64,000 bases of DNA from Gammaproteobacteria bacterium. Its GTDB lineage: Bacteria > Cyanobacteriota > Vampirovibrionia > Vampirovibrionales > JAJTHC01. The stretch covers positions 2,115-66,114 of the forward strand of contig JBEISK010000004.1 in NCBI GenBank assembly GCA_040375445.1, read 5' to 3'. Below are positions 173-47,056 of this stretch, piece after piece (the stretch's first letter is position 1; every line of letters begins with the position of its first letter). The position numbers and the translations under genes are program-made. The notes beneath the pieces are model-generated. The model ran no database searches, was not told the DNA's origin, and saw only the letters and a program-made list of their open reading frames with translations.

Positions 173-242
<70 letters not shown>

Positions 243-246
<4 letters not shown>

Positions 247-290
247 TTTTTAGACCCACCAGCGTTTTTAGAACCATAGAGGTTTACATT
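243..290 (+). repeat. direct repeat DR-A copy 1 (att-like; overlaps the last 4 nt of tRNA-Ile)
   Basis: CCCATTTTTAGACCCAC...TTTTTAGAACC...TTACA recurs at 11793-11840. The core is a 17-bp perfect match, and the rest is imperfect. Confidence 0.8.
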
Positions 291-293
291 TAT

Positions 294-992
294 TTGTTTT
301 CAAAAGAACTAATAATAAAGTCGAGTTTTTTCAATCAGCAAGACTTACAACAAGTTTTTCTTGATCTTCAGACTATTGGGGAGAAAGTTAGTTTTGAGTT
401 AAAGTGCAACGATACTGTTGTGACTCTTTTTAGTGCTGAAGAAATTGAAGAAAGATTAAGTCGGCTAGACTTTCCTGTGAGTTCTATAGAAATCGTGGTG
501 GGTGAGGGCTACTCGGATCGCATTGTTTTTTTGTTAGAGTGTAATTATGTTGGAAACCTTTTTTATAACCGTGATAGTAGAGTTAGCATAAAATCTAAAG
601 ATGAATCATTTGTAAAAAAAAATGAGATTTTTTTAAATGGTATGCTTCGTAAGTACGAAACAGGTTTTCCGTATACGATTCTTTACAATCCAAAACTATT
701 CTCAGTTAAATGGTTTATAGTTGTGTTTTGTGTTCTTTACATGTTCAAATCTTCCACACTAGATATTATTTCTATTCTCTTTAGTGCTCTTGGTTTTAGT
801 TGGTGGATTATTATTATATTGGAAGTGGCATTGAAACTCTTCTTCCCTTATTTAGCCATTGAGACAGAAAGGGTTCGCCCCAAGTCAGTAAAGATAAAAG
901 AATTTTTCCAAACTAGATTTTTAGACATGCTTTTATCTGGTGTAATTGGCGTGATTCTTGGTGTGTTTGCACAACGCTATTTTGGTTGCTGA
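294..992 (+). CDS. orphan membrane protein (cassette ORF X1): about 130-aa soluble N-domain plus about 3 TM helices
   Basis: ORF track entry with a TTG start at 294 and no in-frame ATG near the 5' end. Visibly AT-rich. Hydrophobic stretches include FIVVFCVLYMF, ILFSALGFSWWIIIILEVAL and LLSGVIGVILGVF. It ends exactly where recombinase homology stops. Confidence 0.5.
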   Translation: MFSKELIIKSSFFNQQDLQQVFLDLQTIGEKVSFELKCNDTVVTLFSAEEIEERLSRLDFPVSSIEIVVGEGYSDRIVFLLECNYVGNLFYNRDSRVSIKSKDESFVKKNEIFLNGMLRKYETGFPYTILYNPKLFSVKWFIVVFCVLYMFKSSTLDIISILFSALGFSWWIIIILEVALKLFFPYLAIETERVRPKSVKIKEFFQTRFLDMLLSGVIGVILGVFAQRYFGC

Positions 993-1110
993 TCTCAAGT
1001 CCGTTGCGTTTGGCATATTCTTCCAAAAGCCTGATTTGGGCTGGAATGGAGTAGCCTTCTTTTTCTTGTTCTCTTGAGGAGACTCGGGCGTATAAGACGG
1101 CTGGCTTCAT
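993..1110 (-). pseudogene. large serine recombinase, N-terminal fragment (about 39 codons)
   Basis: MKPAVLYARVSSREQEKEGYSIPAQIRLLEEYAKRNGLEI matches the catalytic-Ser N-terminus of resolvase/invertase-type recombinases. Homology breaks at about 992, and the rest of track ORF 913..1110 is read-through. Confidence 0.75.
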
Positions 1111-1120
1111 GGGTTTTTCC

Positions 1121-1170
1121 TTTCATGTGTACTTATGATATTATATCCCAATATGCCTATTTTTTAAATC
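1121..1170. repeat. direct repeat DR-B copy 1 (recombinase promoter/5'UTR block)
   Basis: TTTCATGTGTACTTATGATATTATATCCCAATATGCCTATTTTTTAAATC recurs at 12498-12553. On the minus strand it carries TATAAT, and an AAGGA SD follows just outside the block, ahead of the recombinase ATG at 1110. Confidence 0.8.
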
Positions 1171-1187: not shown

Positions 1188-4100
1188 ATGACCACAAGCA
1201 CGCCCACCAAAACCTTGCATGATGTACTTGAACAATTCAGAGCCATGAGTACCAGTGAACGACAAAAAGGCGACAAGTTTGAACGCCTGATGTGTGCTTT
1301 TTTCAATACCGACCCCACCTATAAAGATTTGTTTAGCAACGTGTGGATGCTCAATGAATGGGAGGGGCGAAAAAATCACGGCAATTCAGGAAACGATGTT
1401 GGGATTGACCTTGTCGCAGAAGAACGCAACACAGGCGATTTATGGGCGATTCAATGTAAGTTTTATGACCCTCATCATACGCTTCAAAAAACAGATATTG
1501 ATTCCTTTTTTACGGCTTCAGGGAAAGAACCGTTTCGCAAGCGAATGATCGTCACCACGACAAACCGATGGGGCAAGCACGCTTTAGAAGCTTGCGAAAA
1601 TCAACAGATCCCCACGATTCGCTTGGGTATAGAAGAATTGGCTGAAAGCAAAATCGATTGGAGCCAATTTAATCTAAATCGCTTGGACAAGCTAGATTTA
1701 ACGCCTGCTAAAAAGTTACGTGATCACCAAATAGAAGCCCTAGAAGCCGTTCAAAAAGGCTTTGAAACGGCGGATCGTGGCAAGCTGATTATGGCGTGTG
1801 GAACAGGAAAAACCTTTACCTCCTTGAAGATAGCCGAAACCGTGGCTCCTCAAAAAGGGACGGTGCTGTTTTTAGTGCCTTCGATTTCCCTGCTTTCACA
1901 AAGCTTGCGAGAATGGACGAATGAACGAGAACACCCCTTCCACGCTTTTGCCGTGTGTTCTGATACCAAAGTGGGCAAGCCTAGCAAAGGCAAAGATGAA
2001 AATGAAGACATTAGCATCACCGATTTATGCTTCCCTGCCACAACAGATGCTAAATCCTTGATGAAACAGTTTAATCTTGCAAATAAACTAGATTCTCGCT
2101 GGAATGTGGTGTTTTCAACGTATCAATCGATTGAAGCGGTGTCGAATGCCCAAAAAGCTGGCTTGCCCGAATTTGACATGATTATTTGTGATGAAGCCCA
2201 CCGAACCACAGGAGCCACCCTTTCAGGAGCGGATGAATCGCATTTTGTGAAAGTGCATGACAACGCCTTCATTAAAGCGAAAAAACGCTTGTACATGACC
2301 GCCACGCCTAAGCTGTTTAAAGATGAAGTCAAAGCCAAAGCCCTTGAGAACGATGCCCTGCTTTGTTCCATGGATGACGAAAGCCTTTACGGCGTTGAAC
2401 TTTACAGGCTAGGATTCGGTAAAGCCGTTGAAAAAGGTTTATTAAGCGATTACAAAGTGCTGATTTTAGCCGTGGATGAAGGCTATATTCCCAAAACCAT
2501 GCAAGCCATTTTAACCGATGAAGACAATCAACTTAAATTGGAAGATGTGGCTAAAATTACAGGCTGTTGGAATGGGCTTGCCAAGCGGAATGTACACACG
2601 GAAGACGGCATGGATATTGGCAAAAACCCCATGCGTCGAGCGGTGGCGTTTTCTCGTTCGATTGCCGATTCTAAGAAACTTACGAACTTTTTTGTGCAAG
2701 TCGTCAATGAACACATTAAGCATATCCCCAGTGAAACGGAACCCTTGCGTTGTGAGCTGGATCACGTCGACGGGGGGATGAACTCGCTGATTCGTAACGA
2801 AAAACTATCGTGGTTGAAAGAAGAGACGCATGGCAATGTATGCCGTATTTTAAGCAATGCCCGATGCCTTAGTGAAGGCGTGGATGTCCCTTCGCTTGAT
2901 GCCGTGCTGTTTTTGAACCCTCGTAATTCTATGGTGGATGTGGTGCAATCCGTAGGGCGAGTCATGCGAAAATCTGAAGGCAAGGATTATGGCTACATTA
3001 TTTTGCCGATCGGGATTCCTGCTGGTGTTCCCCCTGAAGAAGCCCTCAAAGACAATCAAAAATATAAAGTCGTGTGGGATGTTCTGCAAGCCTTGAGGGC
3101 TCACGACGATCGCTTTAATGCCACGATTAACAAAATCGAACTCAATCAAAAAAAGCCTGACAATGTGCAAGTCATCGGCGTGGGGAGTCCTGAACAAGAA
3201 TCCGATACGTCTAAAGAAAAAAAGGCGAAAGATGCACAACAACTTAATTTAGCCTTAGGCAATTTAGAAGAATGGCGAGATGCTATTTATGCCAAAATCG
3301 TAACCAAATGCGGAGAACGCAAGTATTGGGAAACATGGGCGAAAGATGTGGCACAAATTGCCGAACGCCACGTTCTACGATTGACCCAGTTAATGAATGA
3401 ACCCAACGCCCCCTATAAAGACGTGTTTGAACGCTTTGTGCAAGGCTTACGCTTGAATTTGAACCCGAGCATAAGTGAAGCCGATGCCATTGAAATGTTG
3501 GCTCAACATTTGATTACTAAGCCTGTGTTTGATGCCCTGTTTGAAAATTATGCGTTTACCGAAGCCAACCCTGTTTCGCAAGCCATGCAACATATGTTGG
3601 ATATTTTAGACGGGCAAGGCATGGAAAAAGAACATCAATCCCTTGAAAAGTTTTACGAAAGTATTAAAAGCAAAGTCAGTGGGGTAGACAACGCCCAAGG
3701 TAAGCAGAAAATCATTTTGGAATTGTACGACAAGTTTTTTAAAACGGCGTTTCCTAAAGTGGTTGAAAAGCTTGGCATTGTATACACCCCCGTGGAAGTG
3801 GTGGATTTTATTATTCATAGTGCCAATGATGCCCTACAAAAAGAGTTTGGCAAAAGTTTTGGCGATGCTGGTGTGCATGTGCTAGACCCCTTTACAGGCA
3901 CTGGCACGTTTATGGTAAGGCTTTTGCAAAGTGGATTGATACCCCAAGCGGATTTGGCGAGAAAGTACCAAGAAGAATTGCACGCCAATGAACTGGTTTT
4001 GCTGGCGTATTACATTGCGGCGATTAACATTGAAGAAACTTACCACGGCTTAATGGCAGAAGACCGCTACACCCCCTTTGAAGGCATGGTGTTGACCGAT

Positions 4101-6155
4101 ACCTTTCAATTGACGGAAGGCGACGGCAAAATTGAAGGCGTGTTTCCTGACAACAGCACCCGAGCCAACAAGCAACGCCACAACGATATTCGAGTGATTA
4201 TCGGCAATCCGCCTTATGCTAATGCCCAAGAGAACCCCAGTGGAGGAAATAAGCAAGTTGAATACAGAAATTTGGATGCTCGTTTAAAAGAAACCTACAT
4301 TTTTAATTCTAAAAAATCAGACGGAAAAAGTAAAGCTTACGATTCTTATATTCGAGCGATACGGTGGGCAAGCGACCGCTTGAAAGAAAAGGGCGTGATT
4401 TGTTTTGTGACCAATGGCAGTTTTTTAGACGGCAATGCCATGGACGGCTTGCGTAAATGCTTGGCGGATGAGTTCACCAGCGTGCATGTCTTCAACCTAC
4501 GAGGCAATACTCGCACCAGTGGAGAAACCGCTCGCCAAGAAGGGGGACAAATTTTTTCTTCGGGTAGCCGAGCGACCATTGCCATTACCTTACTCGTCAA
4601 AAACCCCGACCGTGCCTTAGAACCCTCTCCCTTAGGGAGAGGGCAGGGTGAGGGAAACCACCAGCTCCAGTCAAACAGGGAATCCCTCCTCCCAACCTCC
4701 TCCCTAAGGGAGGAGGGGCAAGAAAGGGAGGGAGCGAAACCCACCGCCGAAATCTACTATCACGACATTGGCGATTACTTGGATCGCAAAGAAAAGCTAC
4801 AAATCATTGCGGATTTTAAAAGTATGGCACAGCTCCCCATGAAACGCCTAAAACCCAATAGTAGTCATGACTGGATTAACCAACGAGACCCTGCCTTTGA
4901 TAGTTTTTTACCGCTAGGAATAAAACGGAATAGTGCCAAAGAAATCACTATATTTGATACGTTTTCAATGGGTGTAAAAAGTAACAGGGATGATTGGGTA
5001 TACAATTTTTCTGAAAAAATTCTAGAATGTAATGTGAAGACAATGGTTGATTATTATAATGAGCAAGTAGTAGCATTTGATTATAAAACAATGGGTATCA
5101 TAAAGTTTTTAGAAAAAACACCTTCTACAAAAATAAAATGGACTGAGGATCTCATTAAAGGAGTCGAAAAAGGAAAAAAACTAGCTATTGACCAAAACTC
5201 AAGAATCAAGAGCTTGTATAGACCTTTCACAAAAGTATTCCATCAATATGACAAAAGCATAAATTGGACATTACATCTAATGCCTCAATTTTTCCCGACG
5301 GCGGAACATGAGAATTTGCTCATTTGTACAAATGGTGTTGGAATGCCAAAAGATTTCCAGCCACTTATCTCAAATGTTGTGACAGATGTTCAACTACAGC
5401 CAAATGGTCAATGTTTCCCACTCTACACCTATGAAAAGGTGGCTGAACACACAGGGGTCAACACCCAAACGTCTTTACTGGCATCCGAAACAGGCACGCT
5501 CATCAACGGCTATCGCCGTAAAGACAACATCCCCGACACGCAACTTTCCCACTTTCAAAGCCTCTATGCCGACCCCAGCATCACGAAAGAAGACATCTTC
5601 TATTATGTCTATGGCGTCTTGCATTCGCCTGAATACAAGGAACGTTTTGAAGCGGATTTAAAGAAAATGTTGCCTCGCTTGCCTTTGACGAAAATCACGG
5701 CGGATTTTTGGCAATTTAGTAAAATTGGTCGTGAATTGGCGTATTGGCATTTGAATTATGAAAGCATCGAACCGTATGATTTAGAAGAAGTCAAACAGGG
5801 CTTGGTGCTAGACGAATACGACTTTTACCGAATCGACAAAATGAGCTTCCCCAAGGGTCAAAAATATGGCGACAAACCCGACACGATTATCTATAATAAT
5901 CGCTTAAGTTTACAGGGCATTCCTCCCCAAGCGTGGGATTATGTGGTCAATGGTAAGCCTGCCCTAAGCTGGATTATGGAACGTTATAAAGTTGATGTGC
6001 ATAAGGAAAGTCAGATTAAGAACGATCCGAACTTGTGGTGTGTGGAACAGGAAAACCCAAGGTACATCGTGGATTTGGTGAAGCGTGTGACTCGTGTGGC
6101 GGTGGAAAGCGTCCGTTTGGTTGCCATGCTCCCTGCCTTGAATGAACAAGTCTAG
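1188..6155 (+). CDS. Type ISP restriction-modification enzyme (Mrr-like nuclease + SF2 helicase-like ATPase + N6-adenine methyltransferase + TRD), LlaGI-like
   Basis: The N-terminal Mrr-type nuclease has GIDLVAEE...AIQCK. Helicase motifs are ACGTGKT, ICDEAH, TATP and QSVGRVMR. Methylase motifs are LDPFTGTGTF and IGNPPY. All lie in a single 1655-aa ORF. Confidence 0.88.
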   Translation: MTTSTPTKTLHDVLEQFRAMSTSERQKGDKFERLMCAFFNTDPTYKDLFSNVWMLNEWEGRKNHGNSGNDVGIDLVAEERNTGDLWAIQCKFYDPHHTLQKTDIDSFFTASGKEPFRKRMIVTTTNRWGKHALEACENQQIPTIRLGIEELAESKIDWSQFNLNRLDKLDLTPAKKLRDHQIEALEAVQKGFETADRGKLIMACGTGKTFTSLKIAETVAPQKGTVLFLVPSISLLSQSLREWTNEREHPFHAFAVCSDTKVGKPSKGKDENEDISITDLCFPATTDAKSLMKQFNLANKLDSRWNVVFSTYQSIEAVSNAQKAGLPEFDMIICDEAHRTTGATLSGADESHFVKVHDNAFIKAKKRLYMTATPKLFKDEVKAKALENDALLCSMDDESLYGVELYRLGFGKAVEKGLLSDYKVLILAVDEGYIPKTMQAILTDEDNQLKLEDVAKITGCWNGLAKRNVHTEDGMDIGKNPMRRAVAFSRSIADSKKLTNFFVQVVNEHIKHIPSETEPLRCELDHVDGGMNSLIRNEKLSWLKEETHGNVCRILSNARCLSEGVDVPSLDAVLFLNPRNSMVDVVQSVGRVMRKSEGKDYGYIILPIGIPAGVPPEEALKDNQKYKVVWDVLQALRAHDDRFNATINKIELNQKKPDNVQVIGVGSPEQESDTSKEKKAKDAQQLNLALGNLEEWRDAIYAKIVTKCGERKYWETWAKDVAQIAERHVLRLTQLMNEPNAPYKDVFERFVQGLRLNLNPSISEADAIEMLAQHLITKPVFDALFENYAFTEANPVSQAMQHMLDILDGQGMEKEHQSLEKFYESIKSKVSGVDNAQGKQKIILELYDKFFKTAFPKVVEKLGIVYTPVEVVDFIIHSANDALQKEFGKSFGDAGVHVLDPFTGTGTFMVRLLQSGLIPQADLARKYQEELHANELVLLAYYIAAINIEETYHGLMAEDRYTPFEGMVLTDTFQLTEGDGKIEGVFPDNSTRANKQRHNDIRVIIGNPPYANAQENPSGGNKQVEYRNLDARLKETYIFNSKKSDGKSKAYDSYIRAIRWASDRLKEKGVICFVTNGSFLDGNAMDGLRKCLADEFTSVHVFNLRGNTRTSGETARQEGGQIFSSGSRATIAITLLVKNPDRALEPSPLGRGQGEGNHQLQSNRESLLPTSSLREEGQEREGAKPTAEIYYHDIGDYLDRKEKLQIIADFKSMAQLPMKRLKPNSSHDWINQRDPAFDSFLPLGIKRNSAKEITIFDTFSMGVKSNRDDWVYNFSEKILECNVKTMVDYYNEQVVAFDYKTMGIIKFLEKTPSTKIKWTEDLIKGVEKGKKLAIDQNSRIKSLYRPFTKVFHQYDKSINWTLHLMPQFFPTAEHENLLICTNGVGMPKDFQPLISNVVTDVQLQPNGQCFPLYTYEKVAEHTGVNTQTSLLASETGTLINGYRRKDNIPDTQLSHFQSLYADPSITKEDIFYYVYGVLHSPEYKERFEADLKKMLPRLPLTKITADFWQFSKIGRELAYWHLNYESIEPYDLEEVKQGLVLDEYDFYRIDKMSFPKGQKYGDKPDTIIYNNRLSLQGIPPQAWDYVVNGKPALSWIMERYKVDVHKESQIKNDPNLWCVEQENPRYIVDLVKRVTRVAVESVRLVAMLPALNEQV
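4616..4742. repeat. MITE-like palindromic repeat inserted in frame inside the Type ISP gene
   Basis: CCCTCTCCCTTAGGGAGAGGGCAGGGTGAGGGAAACCACCAGCT...CCTCCTCCCTAAGGGAGGAGG. It has the same architecture as the intergenic copies at 50601 and 54576. It is translated as ...PSPLGRGQGEGNHQLQ...SSLREEGQ... Confidence 0.7.
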
Positions 6156-6680: not shown

Positions 6681-7478
6681 TTGTGTGGCTATCCTGATAC
6701 GTTTGATCTTAAGGCGGAAGCTGGCAAGGTCTTACTTTATTGCCATGCCTGCCAAGCTCCCTTTGAAGCCTTCCTTCAGTATTTTCAATCGCTGGATTTA
6801 GGGCAAGCATCTAAGCCCTATAAAGCCATGCCACAAGCAAGCCTTGCGAAGGTCTCGCACACTAGCAAGCAAGAAACCTTGTCGTATGCCCAAGGCATAT
6901 GGGAGGCATCTAAAGCACTAGAAGGCACGCTTGCCGAACGCTATTTAGTATCAAGAGGCATCACGCTTAAAAACTTGGATGCCTTACGCTTTCATCCGTC
7001 TTTAAAGCATAGCGGAAGCCGTTTGTATCACCCTGCTTTAGTGGCGAAAATCACCACAGAAGACGGCGTGTTGACAGGCATCCACCGCACCTATCTCGCA
7101 TCAAACGGTAAAGGCAAGGCATCGGTTTTAGACCCCAAAATGATGCTAGGCAACACAAGGGGAGCAAACATCCATTTAAGCCCCCTCACAGGCGACACAC
7201 TCGCCGTATGTGAAGGGATTGAAACAGGGTTAAGCATCCTACAAATGACAGGCATCCCGACGTGGGCGTGTCTTTCCATTGCTGGCATGGCAAACCTTGT
7301 GATTCCTAAAAGCATTCGCACCTTGCTAATTTGTGGGGACAATGACCCATCAGGTATAACCGCCTCGCTTGCCTTAAAAGCCCGAGCGATTCAAGAAGGC
7401 TATGCCGTGAAACACATCACCCCCCAAGAAGCAGGCTTTGATTTTAACGATGTTTTACAAAAGGAGGCAACCCAATGA
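6681..7478 (+). CDS. Toprim-domain DNA primase with P4-type zinc ribbon (5' end probably truncated)
   Basis: The C4 ribbon is (C)PLCG...x17...CHAC. The Toprim region is LAVCEGIETGLS...LLICGDNDPSG. The only in-frame start is TTG 6681, which lies after the first Cys codon at 6675. Confidence 0.75.
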   Translation: MCGYPDTFDLKAEAGKVLLYCHACQAPFEAFLQYFQSLDLGQASKPYKAMPQASLAKVSHTSKQETLSYAQGIWEASKALEGTLAERYLVSRGITLKNLDALRFHPSLKHSGSRLYHPALVAKITTEDGVLTGIHRTYLASNGKGKASVLDPKMMLGNTRGANIHLSPLTGDTLAVCEGIETGLSILQMTGIPTWACLSIAGMANLVIPKSIRTLLICGDNDPSGITASLALKARAIQEGYAVKHITPQEAGFDFNDVLQKEATQ

Positions 7479-9031
7479 CCGATATTCAAGCACTGATTAA
7501 CCAGTCCCCACTAGAAACCGCTGAAACGGTTGAAGCATCCAAATGGGGAACACCAAGACCGATTCAAAGCGTTTTGCTCCCCGTGGATGACCTTGATTTA
7601 AGCCTCGTGCCTCATGAGGCACGGGCATGGCTTGAAGATGAAGCCGAACGACTACAAGTCAAACCTGACTTTATAGCGGTGTCCTTAATGGTCGTTTTAA
7701 GTAGCGTTATAGGCAGGCAAGTGGCGATTCGCCCCAAAGCAAAGGACGATTGGATCGTGGTGCCTAACTTATGGGGCATGATTATTGGCAGACCGTCCAG
7801 CTTTAAAAGCCCTAGCGTGGCAGGTGTTTTAAAACCTTTGAATCGCTTACAAGCTTTATCGATTCAAGAAAATGAACACGCTTTAAATGAGTTTCAAGCC
7901 CTTGAAAAACGAAAAGACTTGGAACGAAAAGTGTTGACGGACAAACTAAAACGAACCATGAAGGCAAACCCCGATACGGTGGATATAGAAGCCGAAACCC
8001 TCGTCATTGAAGAAAAATGCAAGCTCCCCCCTAAGCCTGCTTGCAAGCGTTATATCGCCAATGATATTACCGTTCAAAAGCTAGGGGAACTCTTGAGAGA
8101 CAATCCCAATGGCGTGCTGGTGTTTCGAGACGAACTTTCCGCCTTTTTACACAAGCTAGACAAAGAAGGACACGACCAAGACCGTAGCTTCTTCTTAGAA
8201 GCGTGGAACGGCACCAACAGCTATTCAGACGACACCATAAGCCGTGGCACGGTTTATATCGAATCGTGTTGTGTGTCTGTTTTTGGAGGCATACAACCCA
8301 CCGTGCTTGGCAAGTGGCTCGCCGATGCCATTCACCACACAGGCAAAGATGACGGCTTTATGCAACGCTTTCAGCTCATGGTCTACCCCGACCCCTTGCG
8401 AGAGATTCAAGGCGTGGATCGTTACCCGAATAAGCAAGCCCAAAAGACTTACTTTGAATTGGTGAAGCGTTTAAGCACGCTTTCCCCTGAACTTATTGGT
8501 TGCATTCAAGAAGAAGAGGAATTGCCTTATTTGAGATTCGCCCCTGAAGCCCAAGTGATTTTCGATGATTGGTATTTAGACTTAAGGCAAAGGCTTTCAA
8601 GCCCTGAAGGTGACAGCACCTTAGAAGCTCATTTTATGAAGTATTCGTCTTTAGTGCCGTCTTTGGCGTTGATTTGTCATTTGGCGAATGGACATCAAGG
8701 ACAGGTGTCGAAAGAAGCCTTGTTACAAGCCCTTGCATGGAGTGAATACCTTGCAAGCCATGCCAAGCGGATTTATGCACTAGGGCAGAATCATCATTTG
8801 ACGGTGGCTCATGCTTTGTTGAAACGTCTTAAGGCAAAAGAACTTCTGAATCCTTTTACCTTGCGAGAAATTAAGCGTAAGCACTGGCAAGGCATGAGCG
8901 AACCCAAAACGCTTGAAGAGGCGTTGGACACCTTAGAAGAGCATGGCTACTTGCGAAAAGAAGAGAATCGCCCTTTAATAGGTCGTCCGAGTGTTCAGTA
9001 TTACATCAATCCTATAGTGTTCGATAGATGA
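7475..9031 (+). CDS. DUF3987-type primase-associated helicase-like protein
   Basis: ATGA overlap with the primase gene. It is roughly 70 percent identical by eye to the C-terminal two thirds of 43849..46125, for example PRPIQSVLLPVDD, VVPNLWGM and CHLANG. Confidence 0.75.
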   Translation: MTDIQALINQSPLETAETVEASKWGTPRPIQSVLLPVDDLDLSLVPHEARAWLEDEAERLQVKPDFIAVSLMVVLSSVIGRQVAIRPKAKDDWIVVPNLWGMIIGRPSSFKSPSVAGVLKPLNRLQALSIQENEHALNEFQALEKRKDLERKVLTDKLKRTMKANPDTVDIEAETLVIEEKCKLPPKPACKRYIANDITVQKLGELLRDNPNGVLVFRDELSAFLHKLDKEGHDQDRSFFLEAWNGTNSYSDDTISRGTVYIESCCVSVFGGIQPTVLGKWLADAIHHTGKDDGFMQRFQLMVYPDPLREIQGVDRYPNKQAQKTYFELVKRLSTLSPELIGCIQEEEELPYLRFAPEAQVIFDDWYLDLRQRLSSPEGDSTLEAHFMKYSSLVPSLALICHLANGHQGQVSKEALLQALAWSEYLASHAKRIYALGQNHHLTVAHALLKRLKAKELLNPFTLREIKRKHWQGMSEPKTLEEALDTLEEHGYLRKEENRPLIGRPSVQYYINPIVFDR

Positions 9032-9705: not shown

Positions 9706-9790
9706 GTCAACCTATAAGTTGACAAAGTATTGTATTTTGTCAACTTATAGGTTACTATTAAATGATAAAAAAGAAACTTAAAGGTTGACA
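9706..9790 (+). promoter_or_regulatory. palindromic operator-like sites upstream of the HTH gene
   Basis: GTCAAC-CTATAA-GTTGAC at 9706-9723, GTCAAC-TTATAG-GTTAC at 9739-9755, a GGTTGAC half site at 9783-9789, and TTGACAAA...TTTGTCAA at 9719-9743. Confidence 0.5.
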
Positions 9791-9792
9791 AA

Positions 9793-10260
9793 ATGAAGTC
9801 TCGTTCCATTGAAGCCTGTCGACAACTCGACAAACGCTTCCAATCCATTAACGCAAGCACCCTATTTGAACGCCCTGTAAAGGGCTGGATTAAAGCCATT
9901 CGTGAAGCCTTAGGCATGACGCTCGAACAGCTTGGCAATCGCATGAAGGTGTCAAGGCAACAAGTCGGCTACTTAGAGCAAGACGAACTCAAAGGCAGTG
10001 TCACCCTTGCCACCATGGAACGCATCGCTAATGCCTTGGGGTGTCGATTCGTTTATGCGTTGATTCCTGAAACCAGCTTGCAAGACAAAGTCCATGCACA
10101 AGCACGACAAAAATCCCTTGCTTTGCTTGCACAAACCAGTCATAGCATGAATCTTGAAGCACAAGGCGTATTGCCTGAAGAACAAGAAGAACAGCTTCAA
10201 AGCCTGATCGATGACTTCCTAACAGGCAAGCCCTCTCGCTTGTGGGAGGATACAGAATGA
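9793..10260 (+). CDS. mobile mystery protein A (XRE-type HTH)
   Basis: HTH segment IREALGMTLEQLGNRMKVSRQQVGYLE. ATGA-coupled to a Fic gene, which is the arrangement of the TIGR02612/TIGR02613 pair. Confidence 0.75.
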   Translation: MKSRSIEACRQLDKRFQSINASTLFERPVKGWIKAIREALGMTLEQLGNRMKVSRQQVGYLEQDELKGSVTLATMERIANALGCRFVYALIPETSLQDKVHAQARQKSLALLAQTSHSMNLEAQGVLPEEQEEQLQSLIDDFLTGKPSRLWEDTE

Positions 10261-10844
10261 GCGATTTATTCCAAACCGATGATGCATCCACCCCTCTCAC
10301 TGAAGAAGAAAAAAGCGATTTAATTCCTTCTTACATCACGTTTAGAGATGAACTCAACGCCGTTGAGCAAAGCAACATTCTTGAAGCTGAACGTGCTTAT
10401 TTCATTCGCAAGCCTAAAACGATTTTAGAGATACACTTTCTTAAAAAGCTTCATAAACAGATGTTTGGTAACGTGTGGAAGTGGGCAGGCAATTTTCGTA
10501 AAACCGCTCGTAATATCGGGGTGGAAGCGTTTCGTATTCAAACGGAGCTAAAAAAGCTCGTGGATGATGTTCATTTTTGGATCGAGCAAGGCACTTACCC
10601 CCCTGATGAAATAGCGACTCGTTTTCATCATCGTTTGGTGTGGGTTCATCCGTTTCCTAATGGCAATGGTCGTCATGCTCGCTTGGCAACCGATTTGTTA
10701 TTGCGTCAACTCGGGCAGGCAAGATTCACGTGGGGAAGTGTCACCTTAACGTCTATGAATGACACTCGCACGACTTATGTACAAGCCCTTCAAAAGGCTG
10801 ACAAGGGAGATATTTCCGCCTTACTTGCTTTTGTGCGTTCTTAA
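10257..10844 (+). CDS. mobile mystery protein B (Fic-domain protein)
   Basis: Fic motif HPFPNGNGRHARL. The ATG at 10257 overlaps the TGA of the upstream gene. The track ORF begins 15 nt earlier. Confidence 0.8.
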   Translation: MSDLFQTDDASTPLTEEEKSDLIPSYITFRDELNAVEQSNILEAERAYFIRKPKTILEIHFLKKLHKQMFGNVWKWAGNFRKTARNIGVEAFRIQTELKKLVDDVHFWIEQGTYPPDEIATRFHHRLVWVHPFPNGNGRHARLATDLLLRQLGQARFTWGSVTLTSMNDTRTTYVQALQKADKGDISALLAFVRS

Positions 10845-11119
10845 GACCGTGAATCGTGGATGCCTTGCATCAAGAGCGTGGCTCGCAGGCGTTCTATTTG
10901 AGCTTCAATCGAATAGTAGCCATGCGTTAAATTGCCTTGCCTTTGGGCTTGCTTGCCTTCCACCGTTTTCGCCCCTGTGGATTTACCCCCGTGAAAACGA
11001 CACCGACCGTTCTTCATCGCAGGTTGAACACAAGGCAAACCGCTTCTTTTACTGGTGGCTCCGCATTGCTTAAAGGAGTGAAGTGTTTGGACAAGGGGTA
11101 GATCCTCATGTTTTCGCAT
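10841..11119 (-). CDS. HGGxSTG-motif protein
   Basis: CGATSKRSGLPCVQPAMKNGRCRFHGGKSTGAKT. Paralog of 41682..41963. The start was chosen at the Met that aligns with the paralog. Confidence 0.7.
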   Translation of the reverse strand: MRKHEDLPLVQTLHSFKQCGATSKRSGLPCVQPAMKNGRCRFHGGKSTGAKTVEGKQAQRQGNLTHGYYSIEAQIERLRATLLMQGIHDSRS

Positions 11120-11696
11120 GGACTCCCCCTCCCCCGATGTTGCCAATCATCGCTTGCCCGTGATTTTCAACGTTGAAATGTTGAACTTGAATCACTTGCT
11201 TGCCGTGGTTACGATACTTCACCAAGCTTTCGTTTAAGGTGGTAAAGGTCTTCAATAGCTTGGTGCTACGGTTGATTAAGGATTCCACATGACCAGCAGG
11301 TAATTGATCATTCAGACTACGACGCATCATCACCAAAGCAAGATGATTCACACTCACCATTTGAGAAGCCAACATCGTTTCGGTACTGTCATTGGCGGCA
11401 ATACCTCTCAATAGGGCAAGCCCTGCATTCATGTTATCTTCCCCCATAATCGCCACCAGTTGAGTAAGCACATAGTGATGCACATCATCATCCGCCACGC
11501 CAATGGTTTCAAGTAGTTGGGTGTAATGATCCACAATGTTGGCTTTTGGATTCTTCAGCTCGATCCCTCCTCCTTCCCCGACCTTTAGCTTGACGGGTTC
11601 CAAGTGGTTTCGTTCGAGGCGTTTAAACTTGGCTTTCCCTGCTTCGTCAAGAGAAGCGAGATCGGCTTTAGCTTTTTCAAGGGCATCTTTTTGCAT
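11106..11696 (-). CDS. conserved island protein, partner of the HGGxSTG protein
   Basis: Lies upstream of and overlaps the HGGxSTG gene. The C-terminal ...VQHFNVENHGQAMIGN resembles ...QQVNVNDGGQAVVTQ of 41967..42443. Confidence 0.6.
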   Translation of the reverse strand: MQKDALEKAKADLASLDEAGKAKFKRLERNHLEPVKLKVGEGGGIELKNPKANIVDHYTQLLETIGVADDDVHHYVLTQLVAIMGEDNMNAGLALLRGIAANDSTETMLASQMVSVNHLALVMMRRSLNDQLPAGHVESLINRSTKLLKTFTTLNESLVKYRNHGKQVIQVQHFNVENHGQAMIGNIGGGGVHAKT

Positions 11697-11738
11697 GGTA
11701 AGGACTCCTGTTTCTTTAGGCGACTTGCTTTAAAAGGA

Positions 11739-11768
11739 TTGACAACCACTCGCCGTTTTCTCTACAAT
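11739..11768 (+). promoter_or_regulatory. near-consensus sigma70 promoter reading out of island 1 into ORF X2
   Basis: TTGACA at 11739-11744, an 18-nt spacer, then TACAAT at 11763-11768. Confidence 0.55.
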
Positions 11769-11792
11769 ATGTTCGGAACTTGTCTACAATGT

Positions 11793-11840
11793 CCCATTTT
11801 TAGACCCACTCACCATTTTTTAGAACCTTGGGGATCTTAC
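11793..11840 (+). repeat. direct repeat DR-A copy 2
   Basis: CCCATTTTTAGACCCAC...TTTTTAGAACC...TTACA, matching 243-290. Confidence 0.8.
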
Positions 11841-11841
11841 A

Positions 11842-12489
11842 ATGCATGAGTCTGGTTACTATAAGATAAAATTAGATTCTTTAGCAAAAGAAATACTTGA
11901 AAAATCCACCCAACCACAACATAATTATGAGTCTTCTTATCTTGACTTGGAGTTTGATGTTTTTCTTGTCGCACATATCATAAATAAACTTTTAAATTGG
12001 GAAACAAAGCTTTCGGATGAGTTTGAAAAAGAACAATTTTCCTTAGAAAAGTTACCTCGTAAATCCTTAGAAGAATCAGGCAAGATAGATATTATGAATA
12101 ATAATCGATGGGATGAGTTTTACAATGCAGACAAAACACATAAAGAACAACGAAAGGCTTCTTTTATTTGTGACCAGTTAAGACATTCATTCATTTTTTA
12201 TATAACCTCAGAGCCAGTTATGACGGATAATCCTCTTAGTGAAAGCCATGTCTTTAAAGGTTTTGGGTTTAATTCAGACAAAACAAAAAACGAAGGTTTG
12301 TTTTACATCGAAATGAACGAATTTTTGAAAATGATAAATCTCGCTGTTTCTGATGCTATAATAAGTTCGGAATACCGTAGGAATCCTGAAACAGGTACAA
12401 TGCAGATTAAACAGACTCGTTTAAGTTTAAATCCTCGTGAAGTTGAAGAATGGATTAGAACAGGCGAAGAAAGGTTCTATGGACCATAA
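11842..12489 (+). CDS. orphan soluble protein (cassette ORF X2)
   Basis: ATG immediately after DR-A copy 2, with a GGGGA SD-like element inside the repeat. Visibly AT-rich. No recognisable motif. Confidence 0.55.
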   Translation: MHESGYYKIKLDSLAKEILEKSTQPQHNYESSYLDLEFDVFLVAHIINKLLNWETKLSDEFEKEQFSLEKLPRKSLEESGKIDIMNNNRWDEFYNADKTHKEQRKASFICDQLRHSFIFYITSEPVMTDNPLSESHVFKGFGFNSDKTKNEGLFYIEMNEFLKMINLAVSDAIISSEYRRNPETGTMQIKQTRLSLNPREVEEWIRTGEERFYGP

Positions 12490-12497
12490 ACAGCTGA

Positions 12498-12553
12498 TTT
12501 CATGTGTACTTATGATATTATACTCCAATATGCCTGTTTTTTTAGTTTAAATC
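12498..12553. repeat. direct repeat DR-B copy 2 (orphan recombinase promoter block)
   Basis: Matches 1121-1170 with a few substitutions and a 6-bp insertion. No recombinase codons follow it. Confidence 0.8.
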
Positions 12554-12612: not shown

Positions 12613-12840
12613 CTATTCAGGATTAGAGCCGTTCGAACCCGAAGGGGTTTCGGGGTTTAAAAGACCCGAAAGAATTAAAAACGTCGGGGCCCAAAGTCCT
12701 ACAAAAATACCGAAACGCTCCGCATGGGCTTGAATTTCGGGTTGTTCGCCACCCGTGGTATACCAAATAACGATCGATCCTATAATAGAAGCGAATCCCA
12801 AAACGAAGCAGATTTTACTCAACATAGCAGATTTCATCAT
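12613..12840 (-). CDS. small two-TM membrane protein
   Basis: MMKSAMLSKICFVLGFASIIGSIVIWY...FGIFVGLWAPTFLILSGLL. The start was chosen at the internal MM of the track ORF. Confidence 0.45.
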   Translation of the reverse strand: MMKSAMLSKICFVLGFASIIGSIVIWYTTGGEQPEIQAHAERFGIFVGLWAPTFLILSGLLNPETPSGSNGSNPE

Positions 12841-12925
12841 ACAACATTCCTTTATTACATCTTCATACAACACAACATTGTACTTTGTTTATTATAGCAT
12901 ATGTAATAATATAAGGAACTAATGA

Positions 12926-38806: not shown

Positions 38807-39622
38807 TTATCTCTCTCCTGCAAGATCTGCAATACTTGCATTTAAAACAGCCATGGCTATTTTACAAGTATGCTCATCAGGATTAAAGGATGCTGCTATT
38901 TGAGCACGAGGATGCACATAGTTTCTAAAGTCTCGAAGATGCTCACTAAATTTATGAATATCAGCTTTAAGGCTTCCTACTTCTACTGCGGTCTGTATCA
39001 AGTTATTTAGAGTCCAAAAAGCAATACGAAGTGGCTTATCATCTTTGTCTTTTGGAGAAGCCTTTGTTTGATTGTAGATTGTGAAGTTTTTGGAAGCCGT
39101 TTCGAGAAGAAGTGCTTCAAGTATACTGCCACACAAAATCATTGCCGATAAGTAACACTCTGAATTCATGCAACGTTCAAATTCCATAATTCTATCGATT
39201 AGGAGTCTTTGGTAATCAAGAGACAAATCAATTTTTTGTAAATGCTCTAAACTAAACGTTGAAAATTTATCTGTAAGTGTTTCTGTTGAATCTATTGGTT
39301 TTTTAGATGAGTTAGCATTTAACTCACTCAAAACATCTTTTGCTTTTACTATTTTGTTTTGAGGAAATTTTAAATCTTCAGAAATTCTAATTAGTTCTTT
39401 TAAGACCTTAATAATCAACAAACGGTCTTCTTTTTCCAAAAAAATTCTTAATCTTTTTGCTTTACCCTTACCGTTAGTTTTATACTTAGGGTCATCAATA
39501 TTTATACCAAAATCTCGGAAAAATTCAGTAAAGGTTCTATCCGAAAAATTAAGAACATAGCCATCAGACATTTCAAATAAATCTTCAAAAACTACTTTCT
39601 GATGATAACTCAAAACATGCAT
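38807..39622 (-). CDS. AbiJ-like abortive-infection protein candidate (N-terminal AbiJ_NTD-like domain + C-terminal HEPN-like domain)
   Basis: The start is ATG 39622 with GGGAGG 7 nt upstream. The N-terminus is GYVLNFSDRTFTEFFRDFGINIDDPKY...KAKRLRIF. The C-terminus LRDFRNYVHP fits an Rx4-6H HEPN motif. Visibly AT-rich. Confidence 0.55.
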   Translation of the reverse strand: MHVLSYHQKVVFEDLFEMSDGYVLNFSDRTFTEFFRDFGINIDDPKYKTNGKGKAKRLRIFLEKEDRLLIIKVLKELIRISEDLKFPQNKIVKAKDVLSELNANSSKKPIDSTETLTDKFSTFSLEHLQKIDLSLDYQRLLIDRIMEFERCMNSECYLSAMILCGSILEALLLETASKNFTIYNQTKASPKDKDDKPLRIAFWTLNNLIQTAVEVGSLKADIHKFSEHLRDFRNYVHPRAQIAASFNPDEHTCKIAMAVLNASIADLAGER

Positions 39623-39638
39623 ACATAAGCCTCCCAAT

Positions 39639-39670
39639 AACAAAGAAAAATACTCCCAAGGGGATTCGAA
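39639..39670. repeat. 32-bp direct repeat containing a partial tRNA-Glu 3' end (distal att site)
   Basis: AACAAAGAAAAATACTCCCAAGGGGATTCGAA is identical to 48495-48526. The last 20 nt correspond to the 3' end of the tRNA-Glu at 48507-48579. Confidence 0.85.
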
Positions 39671-39797
39671 TGGTGGCATCTAGTGTTTGCAACAATTCTA
39701 TATTCTTTGATATAAATTATTTTTATTCTATTACACTACATTTTACAGCGAAAATAGATTGATGCAATTCTCTTGAAATTGATGGTTTTTGACGAAA

Positions 39798-39830
39798 AAT
39801 TACACAGGAATTACACACGAATTACACCAA
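39798..39830 (+). promoter_or_regulatory. three tandem 11-bp AATTACAC repeats (iteron-like)
   Basis: AATTACACAGG AATTACACACG AATTACACCAA, with a one-helical-turn period, in a 630-bp noncoding stretch. Confidence 0.5.
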
Positions 39831-39959
39831 GTCAAAATCCCTTTTGACGTTGCCTCTTTTTTTCGGGCTTGGCTGGTTGTCATGTAAAGTAAATCCTGAT
39901 TTTTTTACATGATGTGCATTATGTGTAAAAGAAAAGGCGTTTCGTTTACACCTATTTTT

Positions 39960-40005
39960 AAAATCGTCCCCATTGCGATTGCGAAACCTGCGAAAGTTGC
40001 GAAAG
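39960..40005 (+). promoter_or_regulatory. GCGA-type iteron-like repeat, copy 1 of island 2
   Basis: AAAATCGTCCCCATTGCGATTGCGAAACCTGCGAAAGTTGCGAAAGC. Confidence 0.5.
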
Positions 40006-40172
40006 CTCTTGCCTATACCTTGCGGAGATTAACCCTTGTTTACTCCGCAAAAAATGCGGAGATTTATCCGTAAGACGATTATATTCTTGTTATCCTGTCA
40101 TATTGACGCTTTAAACCTATCACGTATGAGAGGATAATCTAATAAAAATGATAGGATAAAATAGCAAGATCT

Positions 40173-40220
40173 AAAATCGCCCCCATTGCGATTGCGGATT
40201 TGCGAAACCTGCGAAAGTGG
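40173..40220 (+). promoter_or_regulatory. GCGA-type iteron-like repeat, copy 2 of island 2
   Basis: AAAATCGCCCCCATTGCGATTGCGGATTTGCGAAACCTGCGAAAGTGG. Confidence 0.5.
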
Positions 40221-40309
40221 AATCTGCCTTATCGTTTAATCAGATACTTTATTATTAAACTTTAATGTGTTATCATTTAACAACTAAAACACTTATTAAA
40301 GGATAATTT

Positions 40310-41476
40310 ATGCCCCCTTCAAATCCTTCACAATATGGCACATACATTCAAAGCACCGCTTCAGGAGAACTCGTCAATGCCTTCATGCCTGCGGACTTGC
40401 CCTTAAACCCTCCCCTCGATCTAAGTTCGCTGGAACCACTGCTTGAAAAAGCCTCCCGCAAGCTTGGAGAGCTGAACGGCATGGCATCCCTATTGCCGAA
40501 TGTGAACCTGTTTTTGTACCATTACATAAGGCAAGAAGCCTTGTTGTCGTCTCAAATTGAGGGAACGCAATCGTCTTACCACGACCTCATGCTCCACGAA
40601 GCTCTAGAAGCCCCGAGCGTGCCACTCGAAGACATCGAAGAGGTGTCGACCTATATCAACGCCATTCATCATGGCATCGCACGCCTGCAAAAAGACGACT
40701 TCCCGCTTTCCCTAAGATTGATCCGTGAAGTGCATGAAAAACTTCTCCACAACACCCGAGGCATGCACAAGCAAGCAGGTCACTTTCGCCAATCTCAAAA
40801 CTGGATAGGCGGTAGTCGCCCGAGTAACGCCCTTTTCGTCCCGCCCCCTCCTGAAAAGCTGGCGGATTTATTGAAAAACCTCGAAGCCTTCATCCATGAA
40901 GAGCAAAGTAACTTGCCCCACTTGGTAAAAGTCGCCATGCTACACTTGCAATTTGAAACCATTCACCCCTTTTTAGATGGCAACGGTCGGGCAGGACGTT
41001 TACTCATCACGCTTTATTTAATTGATAAAGGCATGTTAGATGCCCCTATTTTGTATTTAAGCCTTTACCTTAAAACGCATCGACACACCTATTACCGCTT
41101 GCTTCAAGACGTTCGTCTTGCGGATGGCTGGCTTGAATGGATACGCTTTTTTCTGCAAGGTGTCATAGACACTTGCGATTCGGCTATGGCTCAAACCAAA
41201 GCCCTAAATACCTTAATTGGTACAGATGAAGCAAAGCTTGCCAGTCAAGGCAGACAAAAAGAAACCTTGTTGAGCGTGTTCCAATTTCTCTTGAATAAGC
41301 CTGTCTTGTCGATTCCTTATGCGTCGGAACAACTTGGGCTTTCACAACCGACGGTAACGAAAGCATTTCAAACCCTTGAAGCGTTAGGCATTGTGCAAGA
41401 AGAAAGTGGTAAACAACGAGGCAAGCTTTATGCGTATTCGGCTTATCTTGACGTGTTGAGTAAGCATCAAATCTAA
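40310..41476 (+). CDS. Fic-family protein, class II (N-terminal inhibitory helix, C-terminal wHTH-like domain)
   Basis: Fic motif HPFLDGNGRAGRLL and inhibitory-type motif SSQIEG ([S/T]xxxE[G/N]). AAAGGA SD 6 nt upstream. Confidence 0.8.
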   Translation: MPPSNPSQYGTYIQSTASGELVNAFMPADLPLNPPLDLSSLEPLLEKASRKLGELNGMASLLPNVNLFLYHYIRQEALLSSQIEGTQSSYHDLMLHEALEAPSVPLEDIEEVSTYINAIHHGIARLQKDDFPLSLRLIREVHEKLLHNTRGMHKQAGHFRQSQNWIGGSRPSNALFVPPPPEKLADLLKNLEAFIHEEQSNLPHLVKVAMLHLQFETIHPFLDGNGRAGRLLITLYLIDKGMLDAPILYLSLYLKTHRHTYYRLLQDVRLADGWLEWIRFFLQGVIDTCDSAMAQTKALNTLIGTDEAKLASQGRQKETLLSVFQFLLNKPVLSIPYASEQLGLSQPTVTKAFQTLEALGIVQEESGKQRGKLYAYSAYLDVLSKHQI

Positions 41477-41682
41477 AACGTTTCAGTTTTACCCAAAACT
41501 TCCCAAACACACATGCGTGCGTGTTGCCAACATGCGGTTTTCAATATATTTTCAAATACTTTTTACCCCGCCCCTCCCCCCTTTGCCGAAAATAAGAAAA
41601 GGGGATAGGTGCGACTATTAACTAAACGGTTTTTCAATTCGCCCCGCCTGCGATTGCGAAACCAGCGAAAGTTGCGAAAGTT
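41475..41682. repeat. conserved noncoding module, island 2 copy (inverted relative to 9570-9695)
   Basis: The reverse complement of about 41480-41585 aligns with 9593-9690. A GCGATTGCGAAACCAGCGAAAGTTGCGAAAGT repeat lies at 41650-41682. Confidence 0.7.
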
Positions 41683-41963
41683 TAGACCTCGATTTCATCG
41701 AGTAACGCCTTGCACTGATTCAAAAGCTCCCGCACTTGTTGGCGTTCGGCAATCGCTTCTTTTGTATACAAGCCCGCCTTAAGATTCGCCTGTCGTTGAG
41801 CCTGCTTGCCTTCGAGCGTTTTCGCCCCTGTCGACTTGCCCCCATGAAAGCGACACCGACCGTTCTTCATTGCTGGTTGCGAGCATGGCAAGCCTGAACG
41901 CTTACTGGTGGCTCCACAAGGCTTGAAAAAGTGAAGTTTTGGGACATGGGGTAGGACTTCCAT
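41682..41963 (-). CDS. HGGxSTG-motif protein
   Basis: CGATSKRSGLPCSQPAMKNGRCRFHGGKSTGAKT. Paralog of 10841..11119. Confidence 0.7.
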   Translation of the reverse strand: MEVLPHVPKLHFFKPCGATSKRSGLPCSQPAMKNGRCRFHGGKSTGAKTLEGKQAQRQANLKAGLYTKEAIAERQQVRELLNQCKALLDEIEV

Positions 41964-41966
41964 TTT

Positions 41967-42443
41967 TTACGTCCCTTGTGTCACGACCGCTTGCCCGCCG
42001 TCATTCACATTGACTTGTTGTAAGAAGGTATTGCCCGACTTGCCCCGTAGTTTGGCGAGTGCTTCGGCTTGTTTGGCAAAGGCACCGCTTAACTTTAAAA
42101 TACAATTGGTGAATACTTTTAAACCGCTATGATAGGTTTGATCTTTCAAACGACCACTCATCATAAAAGTTTGTTCTTGAAGCATGAGCATATTTAAGGC
42201 AAGCAAGGCTTCGGTGCTGGATTGTGCCTGTATATCGTGGAGGTATTGCACCACCATGTTCGGATCCATTTCGATTGAGGCACTAGGAAACGTGTTCATA
42301 TATTGGTGAAGCCAGTGCATGGCAAGGGTGGGGCTGGTTGTTCCAAACATAGTGGCTAGCTCGTGAATGTTTTCGTCGTTGCTAAGCGTCCACTGATTTT
42401 CTTCGTTGCGTTCGAATATGGGATACGTTGCCAGTGCGTTCAT
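41967..42443 (-). CDS. conserved island protein, partner of the HGGxSTG protein
   Basis: Ends 3 nt before the HGGxSTG start. The C-terminal region is similar to that of 11106..11696. Confidence 0.6.
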   Translation of the reverse strand: MNALATYPIFERNEENQWTLSNDENIHELATMFGTTSPTLAMHWLHQYMNTFPSASIEMDPNMVVQYLHDIQAQSSTEALLALNMLMLQEQTFMMSGRLKDQTYHSGLKVFTNCILKLSGAFAKQAEALAKLRGKSGNTFLQQVNVNDGGQAVVTQGT

Positions 42444-42537
42444 GCCATGCCCTCCGTGTTGGTTAGGGGTATTATAGCACGTTGTGGGGTTGATTAAAAG
42501 CTAGTGAATACGCTTGATTTACAAGAGAGTGTTAAGA

Positions 42538-43453: not shown

Positions 43454-43502
43454 AGTCTACGATGTCAACTCTTTTTTCATCAATAAAAACCTTTAAGCCT
43501 TA

Positions 43503-43847: not shown

Positions 43848-43848
43848 G

Positions 43849-47018: not shown

Positions 47019-47056
47019 AAACTTATATGCCCCTAAAAACAAAGGAAACAGTAGAT

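Follow-up and report, generated by a model that had tools for sequence, protein, structure and literature searches.

The window analysed here, a 64,000-nucleotide (nt) stretch of contig JBEISK010000004.1 from a Vampirovibrionales genome, carries near its left end a tRNA-Ile(GAT) gene and two kinds of short repeat, DR-A and DR-B, each of which occurs exactly twice in the 64 kb (DR-A at 243-293 and 11793-11841; DR-B at 1121-1187 and 12498-12553). The two DR-A/DR-B pairs are collinear and enclose genes X1 and X2, which have a GC content of 33% against 44-47% for the backbone. Repeat searches bear out the original prediction that an order of DR-A, open reading frame (ORF) and DR-B is present twice with unrelated genes inside it. 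We think that the locus probably consists of two satellite-like islands stacked at tRNA-Ile, from a family in which the recombinase has repeatedly been replaced by unrelated AT-rich genes while the attachment (att) site and the recombinase promoter were kept. The features on which this reading turns are the following.

173-246 (+): tRNA-Ile(GAT), the integration target (ARAGORN; Rfam RF00005, 72.7 bits)
243-293 (no strand): DR-A1, read as attL; CCCATTTTTAGACCCAC core at 243-259, core-like TTTTTAGAACC at 265-275, X-proximal arm up to the X1 start
294-992 (+): X1, TTG start, 232 amino acids (aa), 33% GC; its stop abuts antisense recombinase codon ~40
994-1110 (-): large-serine-recombinase N-terminal stub, ~39 codons, begins MKPAVLYARVSSREQEKEGYSIPAQIRLLEEYAKRNGLEI; PF00239, E=1.2e-5
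1111-1187 (no strand): DR-B1, with recombinase leader, promoter block and leader of the first cargo gene (TTTTTTAAATCACATGAAAGTTTAAATA, then ATG)
11697-11792 (+): right arm of the island (P arm), with a predicted outward promoter TTGACA-18-TACAAT at 11739-11768 that reads across att into X2
11793-11841 (no strand): DR-A2, read as the 11.5-kb island's attR; its 17-bp core is joined directly to the attL-type site and arm that belong to the older X2 module
11842-12489 (+): X2, 215 aa, 33% GC; native C-terminus replaced at the junction with antisense recombinase codons
12477-12503 (-): copy-2 recombinase trace, recognised by comparison with relative L010; ATG plus ~5-8 degenerate codons (MKSAVYGP, then stop), overlapped by the X2 3' end
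12498-12553 (no strand): DR-B2, read as the older island's promoter block; continues into chromosomal DNA at the terminator of gene 12613-12873

The repeats and the genes between them

DR-A begins with CCCATTTTTAGACCCAC, a 17-base-pair (bp) sequence that is exact at 243-259 and 11793-11809 and has no further match in the window even with up to three mismatches allowed. An exact TTTTTAGAACC follows 5-7 nt later in both copies, and beyond it the copies remain about 70% similar up to each start codon. DR-B is 93% identical over 45 nt (1121-1165 against 12498-12542) and has a 25-nt core with two matches in the window; in DR-B2, 16 nt of leader are absent between two TTCAT repeats. Chance was rejected as the source of the repeats, given 0.18 expected matches for DR-A and none in 100 shuffles for the DR-B core. 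The DR-B sequence, TTTCATGTGTACTTATGATATTATA (block B), lies directly upstream of the recombinase start and contains a minus-strand promoter match (TTTAAA-17-TATAAT at 1168-1140, a match to consensus only), in agreement with its original assignment as the promoter and 5' untranslated region of the recombinase gene.

The tRNA gene, the sole match in an Rfam scan, overlaps DR-A1 by 4 nt, so that its last four nucleotides are the first four of DR-A1. This overlap was absent from the original prediction. Because the exact 17-bp repeat brackets a satellite-like 11.5-kb island (island 1) at the 3' end of tRNA-Ile, we take DR-A to be the attachment site. Copy 1 can thus be read as the resident island's left end, and copy 2, beyond attR, as the left-end stump of an older island whose cargo has been lost. 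What had been described as a cassette present twice is, on this evidence, better described as two stacked island ends produced by att duplication.

X1 and X2 have no similarity to each other. Both are real genes, since full-length homologues exist in other assemblies; an exact look-up found neither sequence itself on record in assemblies. The proposal that DR-A supplies a Shine-Dalgarno element fits X2, which has GGGGA 7 nt before its ATG, better than X1, whose AGAGG lies 12 nt before the TTG and is rather far. X1 has an alpha/beta N-terminal part and long C-terminal hydrophobic helices in a poor AlphaFold model (predicted local distance difference test, pLDDT, 57; not searchable). The X2 model is a confident alpha/beta structure (pLDDT 75; predicted template modelling score, pTM, 0.71) with no fold neighbour in PDB or BFVD. 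Neither protein matched Pfam, PADLOC or PHROGs, and no homologues were found in GenBank phages (tblastn) or IMG/VR (alignments). These searches lend no support to the suggestion that the two genes are occupants of a defence hotspot, and an accessory or anti-phage role could plausibly be proposed for them from their position. The ends of X1 and X2 lack inverted repeats and attC-type sites, and the right boundary in each case consists of antisense recombinase codons.

In copy 1 the recombinase gene starts at 1110 on the minus strand, and about 39-40 codons are recognisable, including a YARVSS motif. The stub covers positions 1-35 of PF00239, with the domain cut after 40 of about 145 residues, and is 75% identical to the N-terminus of a 502-aa recombinase, P0038. 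A tblastn match extends to 53 residues; since residues 41-53 are only about 20% identical, we keep the junction at codon ~40. The count of about 39 surviving codons first given for copy 1 therefore holds, but copy 2 is not devoid of recombinase sequence, as had been stated, and retains the ATG and ~5-8 codons. Neither PF07508 nor PF13408 was detected by tblastn in 243-1187 or 11793-12553, and no other recombinase lies between 243 and 11793, leaving the island without a functional integrase. Likewise, tblastn found no remnant of the recombinase body in any island-1-type locus. A search with the 40-aa stub returned only proteins of 31-70 aa. Many of these were fragments at contig edges or frameshifted phage recombinases that are unrelated (L025-L031), so the search could not reveal an intact orthologue.

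Intact recombinases and the slot in relatives

A second, related island in the same window provides a larger part of such a recombinase.

39635-48526 (no strand): second, related island at tRNA-Glu(TTC), with a 36-nt direct repeat (39635-39670/48491-48526)
47871-48560 (+): large-serine-recombinase C-terminal fragment, 229 aa; zinc-ribbon PF13408, 4e-14

The 36-nt repeat includes the 3' end of tRNA-Glu. The last codons of the recombinase fragment are encoded by att and tRNA-Glu, with no gene between, and the N-terminal half of the recombinase is replaced by ORFs of 31-34% GC (46215-47485). We searched the fragment against 1.8 billion representative proteins and found P0038 to be its best full-length relative (46% identity to residues 277-502; 226 aa, tail included). 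A T-arm-encoded (D/E)SN motif is present in the last 32 residues of 30 of the 55 full-length clade relatives, compared to 0-3 in internal control windows. P0098 ends in ..KEWWAIGDLNTGPHPYQGCALAN, and the antisense of the tRNA-Ile(GAT) gene in the window reads KWACRDSNTGPHPYQGCALTN followed by a stop. The antisense frame across att in the relative L032 is open (..LYGSKKWWACRDSNTG..) and parallels the P0098 tail (..KEWWAIGDLNTG..), and the KKWW of a tail of this kind would come from the att core CCACCATTTTTT.

Since the ORFs of full-length clade relatives continue through att and end in the tRNA, the slot between att and block B should be filled by the recombinase body. The T-arm tails, the P0098 tail antisense to tRNA-Ile(GAT) and the layout of the tRNA-Glu island all favour the proposal that X genes stand where the recombinase body belongs. 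We infer that the recombinase fills the whole att-to-B interval in intact clade members and that, in the island-1 lineage, X1, X2 and a third gene, X3, occupy its place. This ancestral layout is drawn from the wider clade and the tRNA-Glu island because no intact orthologue was found.

The protein tails of this clade are also of interest in themselves. P0038, P0043, P0047, P0049, P0098, P0167 and others have tails derived from a tRNA T-arm (..DSNP.., ..ESNP..). With their stop codons located within the target tRNA gene, such proteins could allow the att site to be predicted from nothing more than the tail sequence.

Relatives of island 1 were compared at about ten loci, the titled ones being from Vampirovibrionales metagenome-assembled genomes (MAGs) and the others from metagenomes; genome and metagenome scans with orf196, a gene at the right end of the island, gave 8 and 4 loci, of which only 6 are true relatives. 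The two flanks occur together elsewhere, as the original prediction implied, in relatives that include L010, L032 and L036. Across the relatives the slot holds an X1-like gene, an X2-like gene or an AlbA_2 gene, or is nearly empty, and the recombinase stubs range from 0 to about 45 codons.

Several loci contain the left end of the island. In L010 (GCA_964506805.1), the same island type lies between umuDC and a type I S-subunit gene, a non-tRNA site, and is flanked by an A-type 14-bp direct repeat, TCCACCATTTTTTA. Its order is X2-like gene, recombinase-start trace, block B, leader TTTTTTAAATCACATGAAAGTTTAAGATG, PLD/SNF2 helicase and MmeI-type methyltransferase, Abi_2, orf95, orf196 and P, a layout that assigns X and B to the left end of the island. 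L032-34 and L036 contain, in order, tRNA-Ile, att, an X1-like gene, stub, block B and PLD/SNF2 cargo; the stub has ~31 codons with an in-frame stop in L032 and ~26 codons in L036, and the DR-A1 type of junction adjoins tRNA-Ile in both.

The right end of the island (orf101, orf196, P), followed by att and then an occupant, is present in L003-6, L007-9 and L024. The occupant is an X1-like gene with an 11-codon internal recombinase fragment in L003-6, an X2-like gene with its native tail and terminator in L007-9, and an AlbA_2 gene in L024 that starts 7 nt after a 49-aa stub and is followed by an intact block B. The same chromosomal gene (74 aa) follows in all of these loci as in the window, and the B2/chromosome junction is orthologous in L024. 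The slot of L014 is nearly empty. L001/L002 have tRNA-Ile remnants, an X1-like gene, a stub of ~30 codons and then chromosome, without the 10.6-kb cargo, and the right end in L013 stops at the A core and is joined via TCCACCATTTTTA to unrelated DNA.

The occupants are mutually unrelated, have a GC content of 31-34% and fall into three families, all scarce, with very few homologues each among 5.8 billion proteins. One member of the X1 family, P0002, is a mosaic. P0009 and L007 have the native tail and terminator of X2, which the window and L010 lack. The AlbA_2 gene of L024 is the third occupant, X3 (332 aa), and lies on the recombinase strand. A gene of the X2 family (53% identical) also occurs after a Fic gene in a distant relative, L035 (380-420 and 1110-1140). 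That Fic gene is bracketed by a direct repeat of ~28 nt, GGGGCGTGCTAGAATAGGGTTTT, with a TCCACCATTT motif nearby, in a context unlike the islands described here.

Junctions between occupant and recombinase are common to distinct loci. The X1 junction at codon ~40 is common to the window and L003, and L001 is a further deletion of it. The X2 junction is common to copy 2 of the window and L010, where it lies at a non-tRNA site with its own 14-bp repeat, and this makes the proposed immobilisation of the element doubtful. X and cargo types are combined as X1 with Type ISP, X1-like with PLD/SNF2 and X2-like with PLD/SNF2. These mosaics indicate that exchange between islands occurs.

Block B marks a further boundary. 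A DR-B1-type block precedes different first cargo genes in L010, L032 and L036, and the genes begin at the same ATG after an identical leader, AAATCACATGAAAGTTTAA (window 1188, L010 10744, L032 6803, L036 3512). The shared ATG and leader constitute a second, sharply bounded exchange point across block B.

A separate kind of repeat occurs between the tRNA or island end and the X gene in L001 (1-170), L007 (9880-9965) and L036 (2536-2625). These are tandem 70-nt units. Each copies the 3' half of tRNA-Ile, with changes in the anticodon loop, and adds a 24-nt trailer (TTTTTAGACCCACCAGCGTTGACA). Elements with an att that extends as far as the anticodon loop (cf. recombinases of the P0098 type) seem to have left them behind as scars of successive integrations.

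Recombinase loss and competing accounts

Under the stacked-island reading, the family layout would run att, large serine recombinase reading towards att, block B, variable cargo, primase-DUF3987, Fic or Abi_2, orf101-orf196, P, att. The copy-1 DR-A would be attL and the copy-2 DR-A would be attR plus the old attL, with the copy-1 block B belonging to the resident and the copy-2 block to the stump. The recombinase body would have been lost several times independently, with low-GC accessory genes (X1, X2, X3) or nothing in its stead. The att arm, whose retention is needed for recombination, sets the left boundary of each occupant. The recombinase-side junction is different in each lineage and cuts into X coding ends, and these junctions look like illegitimate deletions. 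That each junction type is common to distant genomes suggests that the events were rare and old.

X1 and X2 are oriented for reading from P or the tRNA promoter, and X3 would be read from B, just behind the stub. The P arm, ATGTTCGGAACTTGTCTAC, is 96-98% identical in all relatives, as compared to 91-95% for neighbouring coding sequence; IMG/VR scans with P-arm DNA and with DUF3987 gave no match. Block B is likely conserved without a recombinase because it also carries the leader, and perhaps the promoter, of the first cargo gene.

Islands without a recombinase may be moved in trans by the intact recombinase of a sibling. If an island integrated beside a resident stump and A x A excision or B x B deletion came next, the X left at the locus would be swapped. 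The presence of one X2 junction at two chromosomal sites points to trans mobilisation or to module transfer by homologous recombination.

Several observations weigh against stacked islands with a replaced recombinase. No intact recombinase was found in the slot in any copy of this island family among the roughly ten relatives. The stub is only 40 aa long, and in this clade N-termini resemble one another generically (68-93% for unrelated contigs). The tRNA-Glu island used to derive the layout has a different tRNA target. Transfer of the X2 module by homologous recombination explains the shared junction equally well. The 17-bp att identity is longer than is typical for serine recombinases, and DR-A1 has 18 nt more than the clean attL of L032, which requires an attP that had already picked up a tRNA trailer. 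Finally, the promoters in P and B are consensus matches only, and all relatives are MAG or metagenome contigs, many of them cut at this repeat-rich spot.

A stronger version of the same idea holds that integrase replacement is a selected, recurrent route by which low-GC accessory genes, perhaps toxic or anti-phage ones, are captured exactly between a kept att arm and the kept recombinase promoter, in islands that lose their autonomy yet stay mobilisable in trans and whose att-adjacent expression depends on their state. In the integrated state, P would drive the resident X beyond attR and the tRNA promoter would drive the island's own X; in a circular or tandem state, P would drive the island's own X. 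We regard this extension as rather unlikely.

The best-surviving alternative is that the slot is a dedicated hotspot for cargo exchange, in which att plus P and stub plus B anchor the recurrent swapping of accessory or defence genes, much as the defence hotspot of P4-like satellites lies between psu and int, next to the integrase (Rousset et al., 2022; PMC9122126). The four slot states (X1, X2, X3, empty) across about ten loci, the mosaic X/cargo combinations, the mosaic P0002 within the X1 family, the uniformly low GC of the occupants and the position beside an integrase are what such a hotspot would produce, and the variability of the slot between the same flanks is the part of the original hotspot proposal that stands. 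We consider such an active exchange mechanism less likely than stacked islands. The account is made doubtful by the small number of occupant families and their scarcity among 5.8 billion proteins, by the lack of a PADLOC match to a known defence family for any occupant, and by the differing junctions that cut X coding ends, which are a signature of deletion and not of fixed-site exchange. Each junction is, moreover, old and shared, and att duplication alone explains the duplication in the window.

It is also conceivable that nothing was replaced. X genes would always have lain, convergently, between att and a full-length recombinase, and independent deletions would then have removed the recombinase body. 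The absence of the X2 tail and terminator from the window and L010, when P0009/L007 keep them, implies that a deletion took the X2 3' end together with the recombinase codons. Stub lengths of 0 to 45 codons and the status of L001 as a further deletion derivative of the window-type junction are consistent with such decay. We nevertheless find the account improbable, since the clade recombinase ORF runs into the tRNA and att and leaves no room for a gene, and since the antisense frame across the L032 att is open, in parallel with P0098. The tRNA-Glu island in the same genome has a gene-free recombinase-att layout, and X-type-specific sequence begins within ~25 nt of the att core.

A third possibility would place attP in block B, making the island cargo...P-A-X-rec-B and the tRNA-proximal A1-X1-rec'-B1 the older stump. 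The window has a symmetric topology, with duplicates of both A and B, a short AGTTTAAAT is common to the B1 tail and the B2/chromosome junction, and serine recombinase genes often adjoin attP. We rejected this arrangement and consider it very improbable in view of the relatives and the clade tails. The repeats that flank L010, at a site without a tRNA gene, are 14 bp long and of the A type, and X-rec-B is leftmost in that island; on the right, L013 ends at the A core, beside unrelated DNA; L032/L036 have the order tRNA, A, X1-like, stub, B, cargo; and the clade tails locate att at the 3' and not the 5' end of the recombinase gene.

An assembly artefact or an in-genome segmental duplication of one cassette is scarcely credible, and the duplication was rejected, for although the 75.7-kb contig is of metagenome type and repeats can mislead assemblers, the repeats here are only 40-45 nt long, X1 and X2 are unrelated, and independent assemblies reproduce the left half (L032/L036) and the right half (L007/L010). 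Native chromosomal origin of X1 and X2 was rejected as well, as L010, L032 and L036 place X-like genes inside islands.

Island content and comparison with known systems

Between its ends, the 11.5-kb island encodes the following.

1188-6155 (+): Type ISP restriction-modification enzyme (Type_ISP_C 4e-102, ISP_coupler 1e-51, Mrr_cat_2 2e-47; PADLOC)
6681-7478 (+): DUF7146/Toprim primase (Pfam); module 92-95% identical to L007 at the nucleotide level
7475-9031 (+): DUF3987 protein; replication module 6681-9031, 92-95% nucleotide identity to L007
9793-10260 and 10242-10844 (+): XRE-type regulator and Fic, a variable module; relatives carry Abi_2 instead
10841-11696 (-): right-end genes orf101 and orf196, 91-97% nucleotide identity in all related islands

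The Type ISP enzyme contains five Pfam domains in one polypeptide (Mrr nuclease, helicase of the superfamily 2 ATPase type, coupler, gamma-methyltransferase and ISP specificity). Orf101 has an HGGxSTG motif (DUF5763) and a weak small-terminase PHROG match. Within the Type ISP gene, a GC-rich element of ~115 nt (4609-4720) with internal inverted repeats (4627-4648/4691-4712) is inserted in frame and fills the gap between the methyltransferase match, which ends at aa 1142, and the specificity domain. An inverted copy, 77% identical, lies 50 kb away at 54576-54689. The element resembles a miniature inverted-repeat transposable element or other small dispersed repeat tolerated in the linker. Shortly before the XRE gene, which starts at 9793, positions 9709-9794 contain two near-perfect palindromes that overlap (21 nt, 95%; 26 nt, 81%) and are formed on TTGACAAAGTA/TATTTTGTCAA; these are probably the operator and promoter of the XRE-Fic pair.

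The tRNA-Glu island carries Fic, an orf101 homologue (73% aa and 78% nucleotide identity), an NrS-1-type primase-DUF3987 fusion and AT-rich ORFs. An outward-directed AT-rich ORF on the minus strand (38807-39679) begins at its distal att repeat, much as X2 does after DR-A2.

Taken together, these small satellite-like islands with defence cargo make up a family not characterised before, hosted by Vampirovibrionales, which are related to cyanobacteria but do not photosynthesise. Accessory genes would accumulate in the very position of the serine-integrase gene, with the att site and promoter retained. If this proves general, one could search for unknown accessory or anti-phage genes by way of integrase stubs flanked by conserved att and promoter blocks, and the same stubs could flag islands that depend on the recombinase of a sibling. 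A serine-recombinase clade whose frames end inside tRNA genes should likewise be useful for att-site prediction.

A comparison with known systems reveals partial resemblance to each of several kinds. Like the P4 hotspot, the slot belongs to a small integrative element with a P4-type primase/helicase domain (DUF3987), next to a tRNA gene, with defence cargo (here Type ISP restriction-modification and Fic/Abi_2) and with conserved flanks around variable loci, one of which is located at the integrase end. The host in our case belongs to Vampirovibrionales, and the element has no psu, delta, sid, cos or tyrosine integrase, so that only the DUF3987/primase module is shared. The integrase is of the large serine recombinase type, and the variable genes stand where it should be, not beside it. 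The occupants are also without recognised defence domains.

Integron cassettes provide a second comparison. Promoter-less genes of varied origin lie directly downstream of a recombination site and a resident promoter in both systems, whereas the islands have no attC-like sites and no IntI, their slot is bounded by att and a deletion junction, and each slot holds one gene.

Within its own recombinase clade, in which the ORF ends inside the target tRNA, the family is tied to P0038/P0098 by the identities to P0038 (75% for the stub, 46% for the tRNA-Glu-island fragment). It differs in that the island-1 copies keep 5-40 codons and lack the catalytic, recombinase and zinc-ribbon domains.

SGI1 tandem arrays (PMC2297512) and grounded, integrase-less prophages (PMC6379469), as reported, resemble the present locus in the stacking of elements by repeated integration at one att, in deletion stumps and recombinase loss, and in the use of secondary att sites (here L010 and L013). 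The islands differ from these in family-wide loss of the recombinase, in conservation of the att arms and promoter, and in the new genes found in the gap. Three kinds already described can be recognised in the locus, namely tRNA-targeting satellite-like defence islands, integrase-adjacent hotspots and grounded elements.

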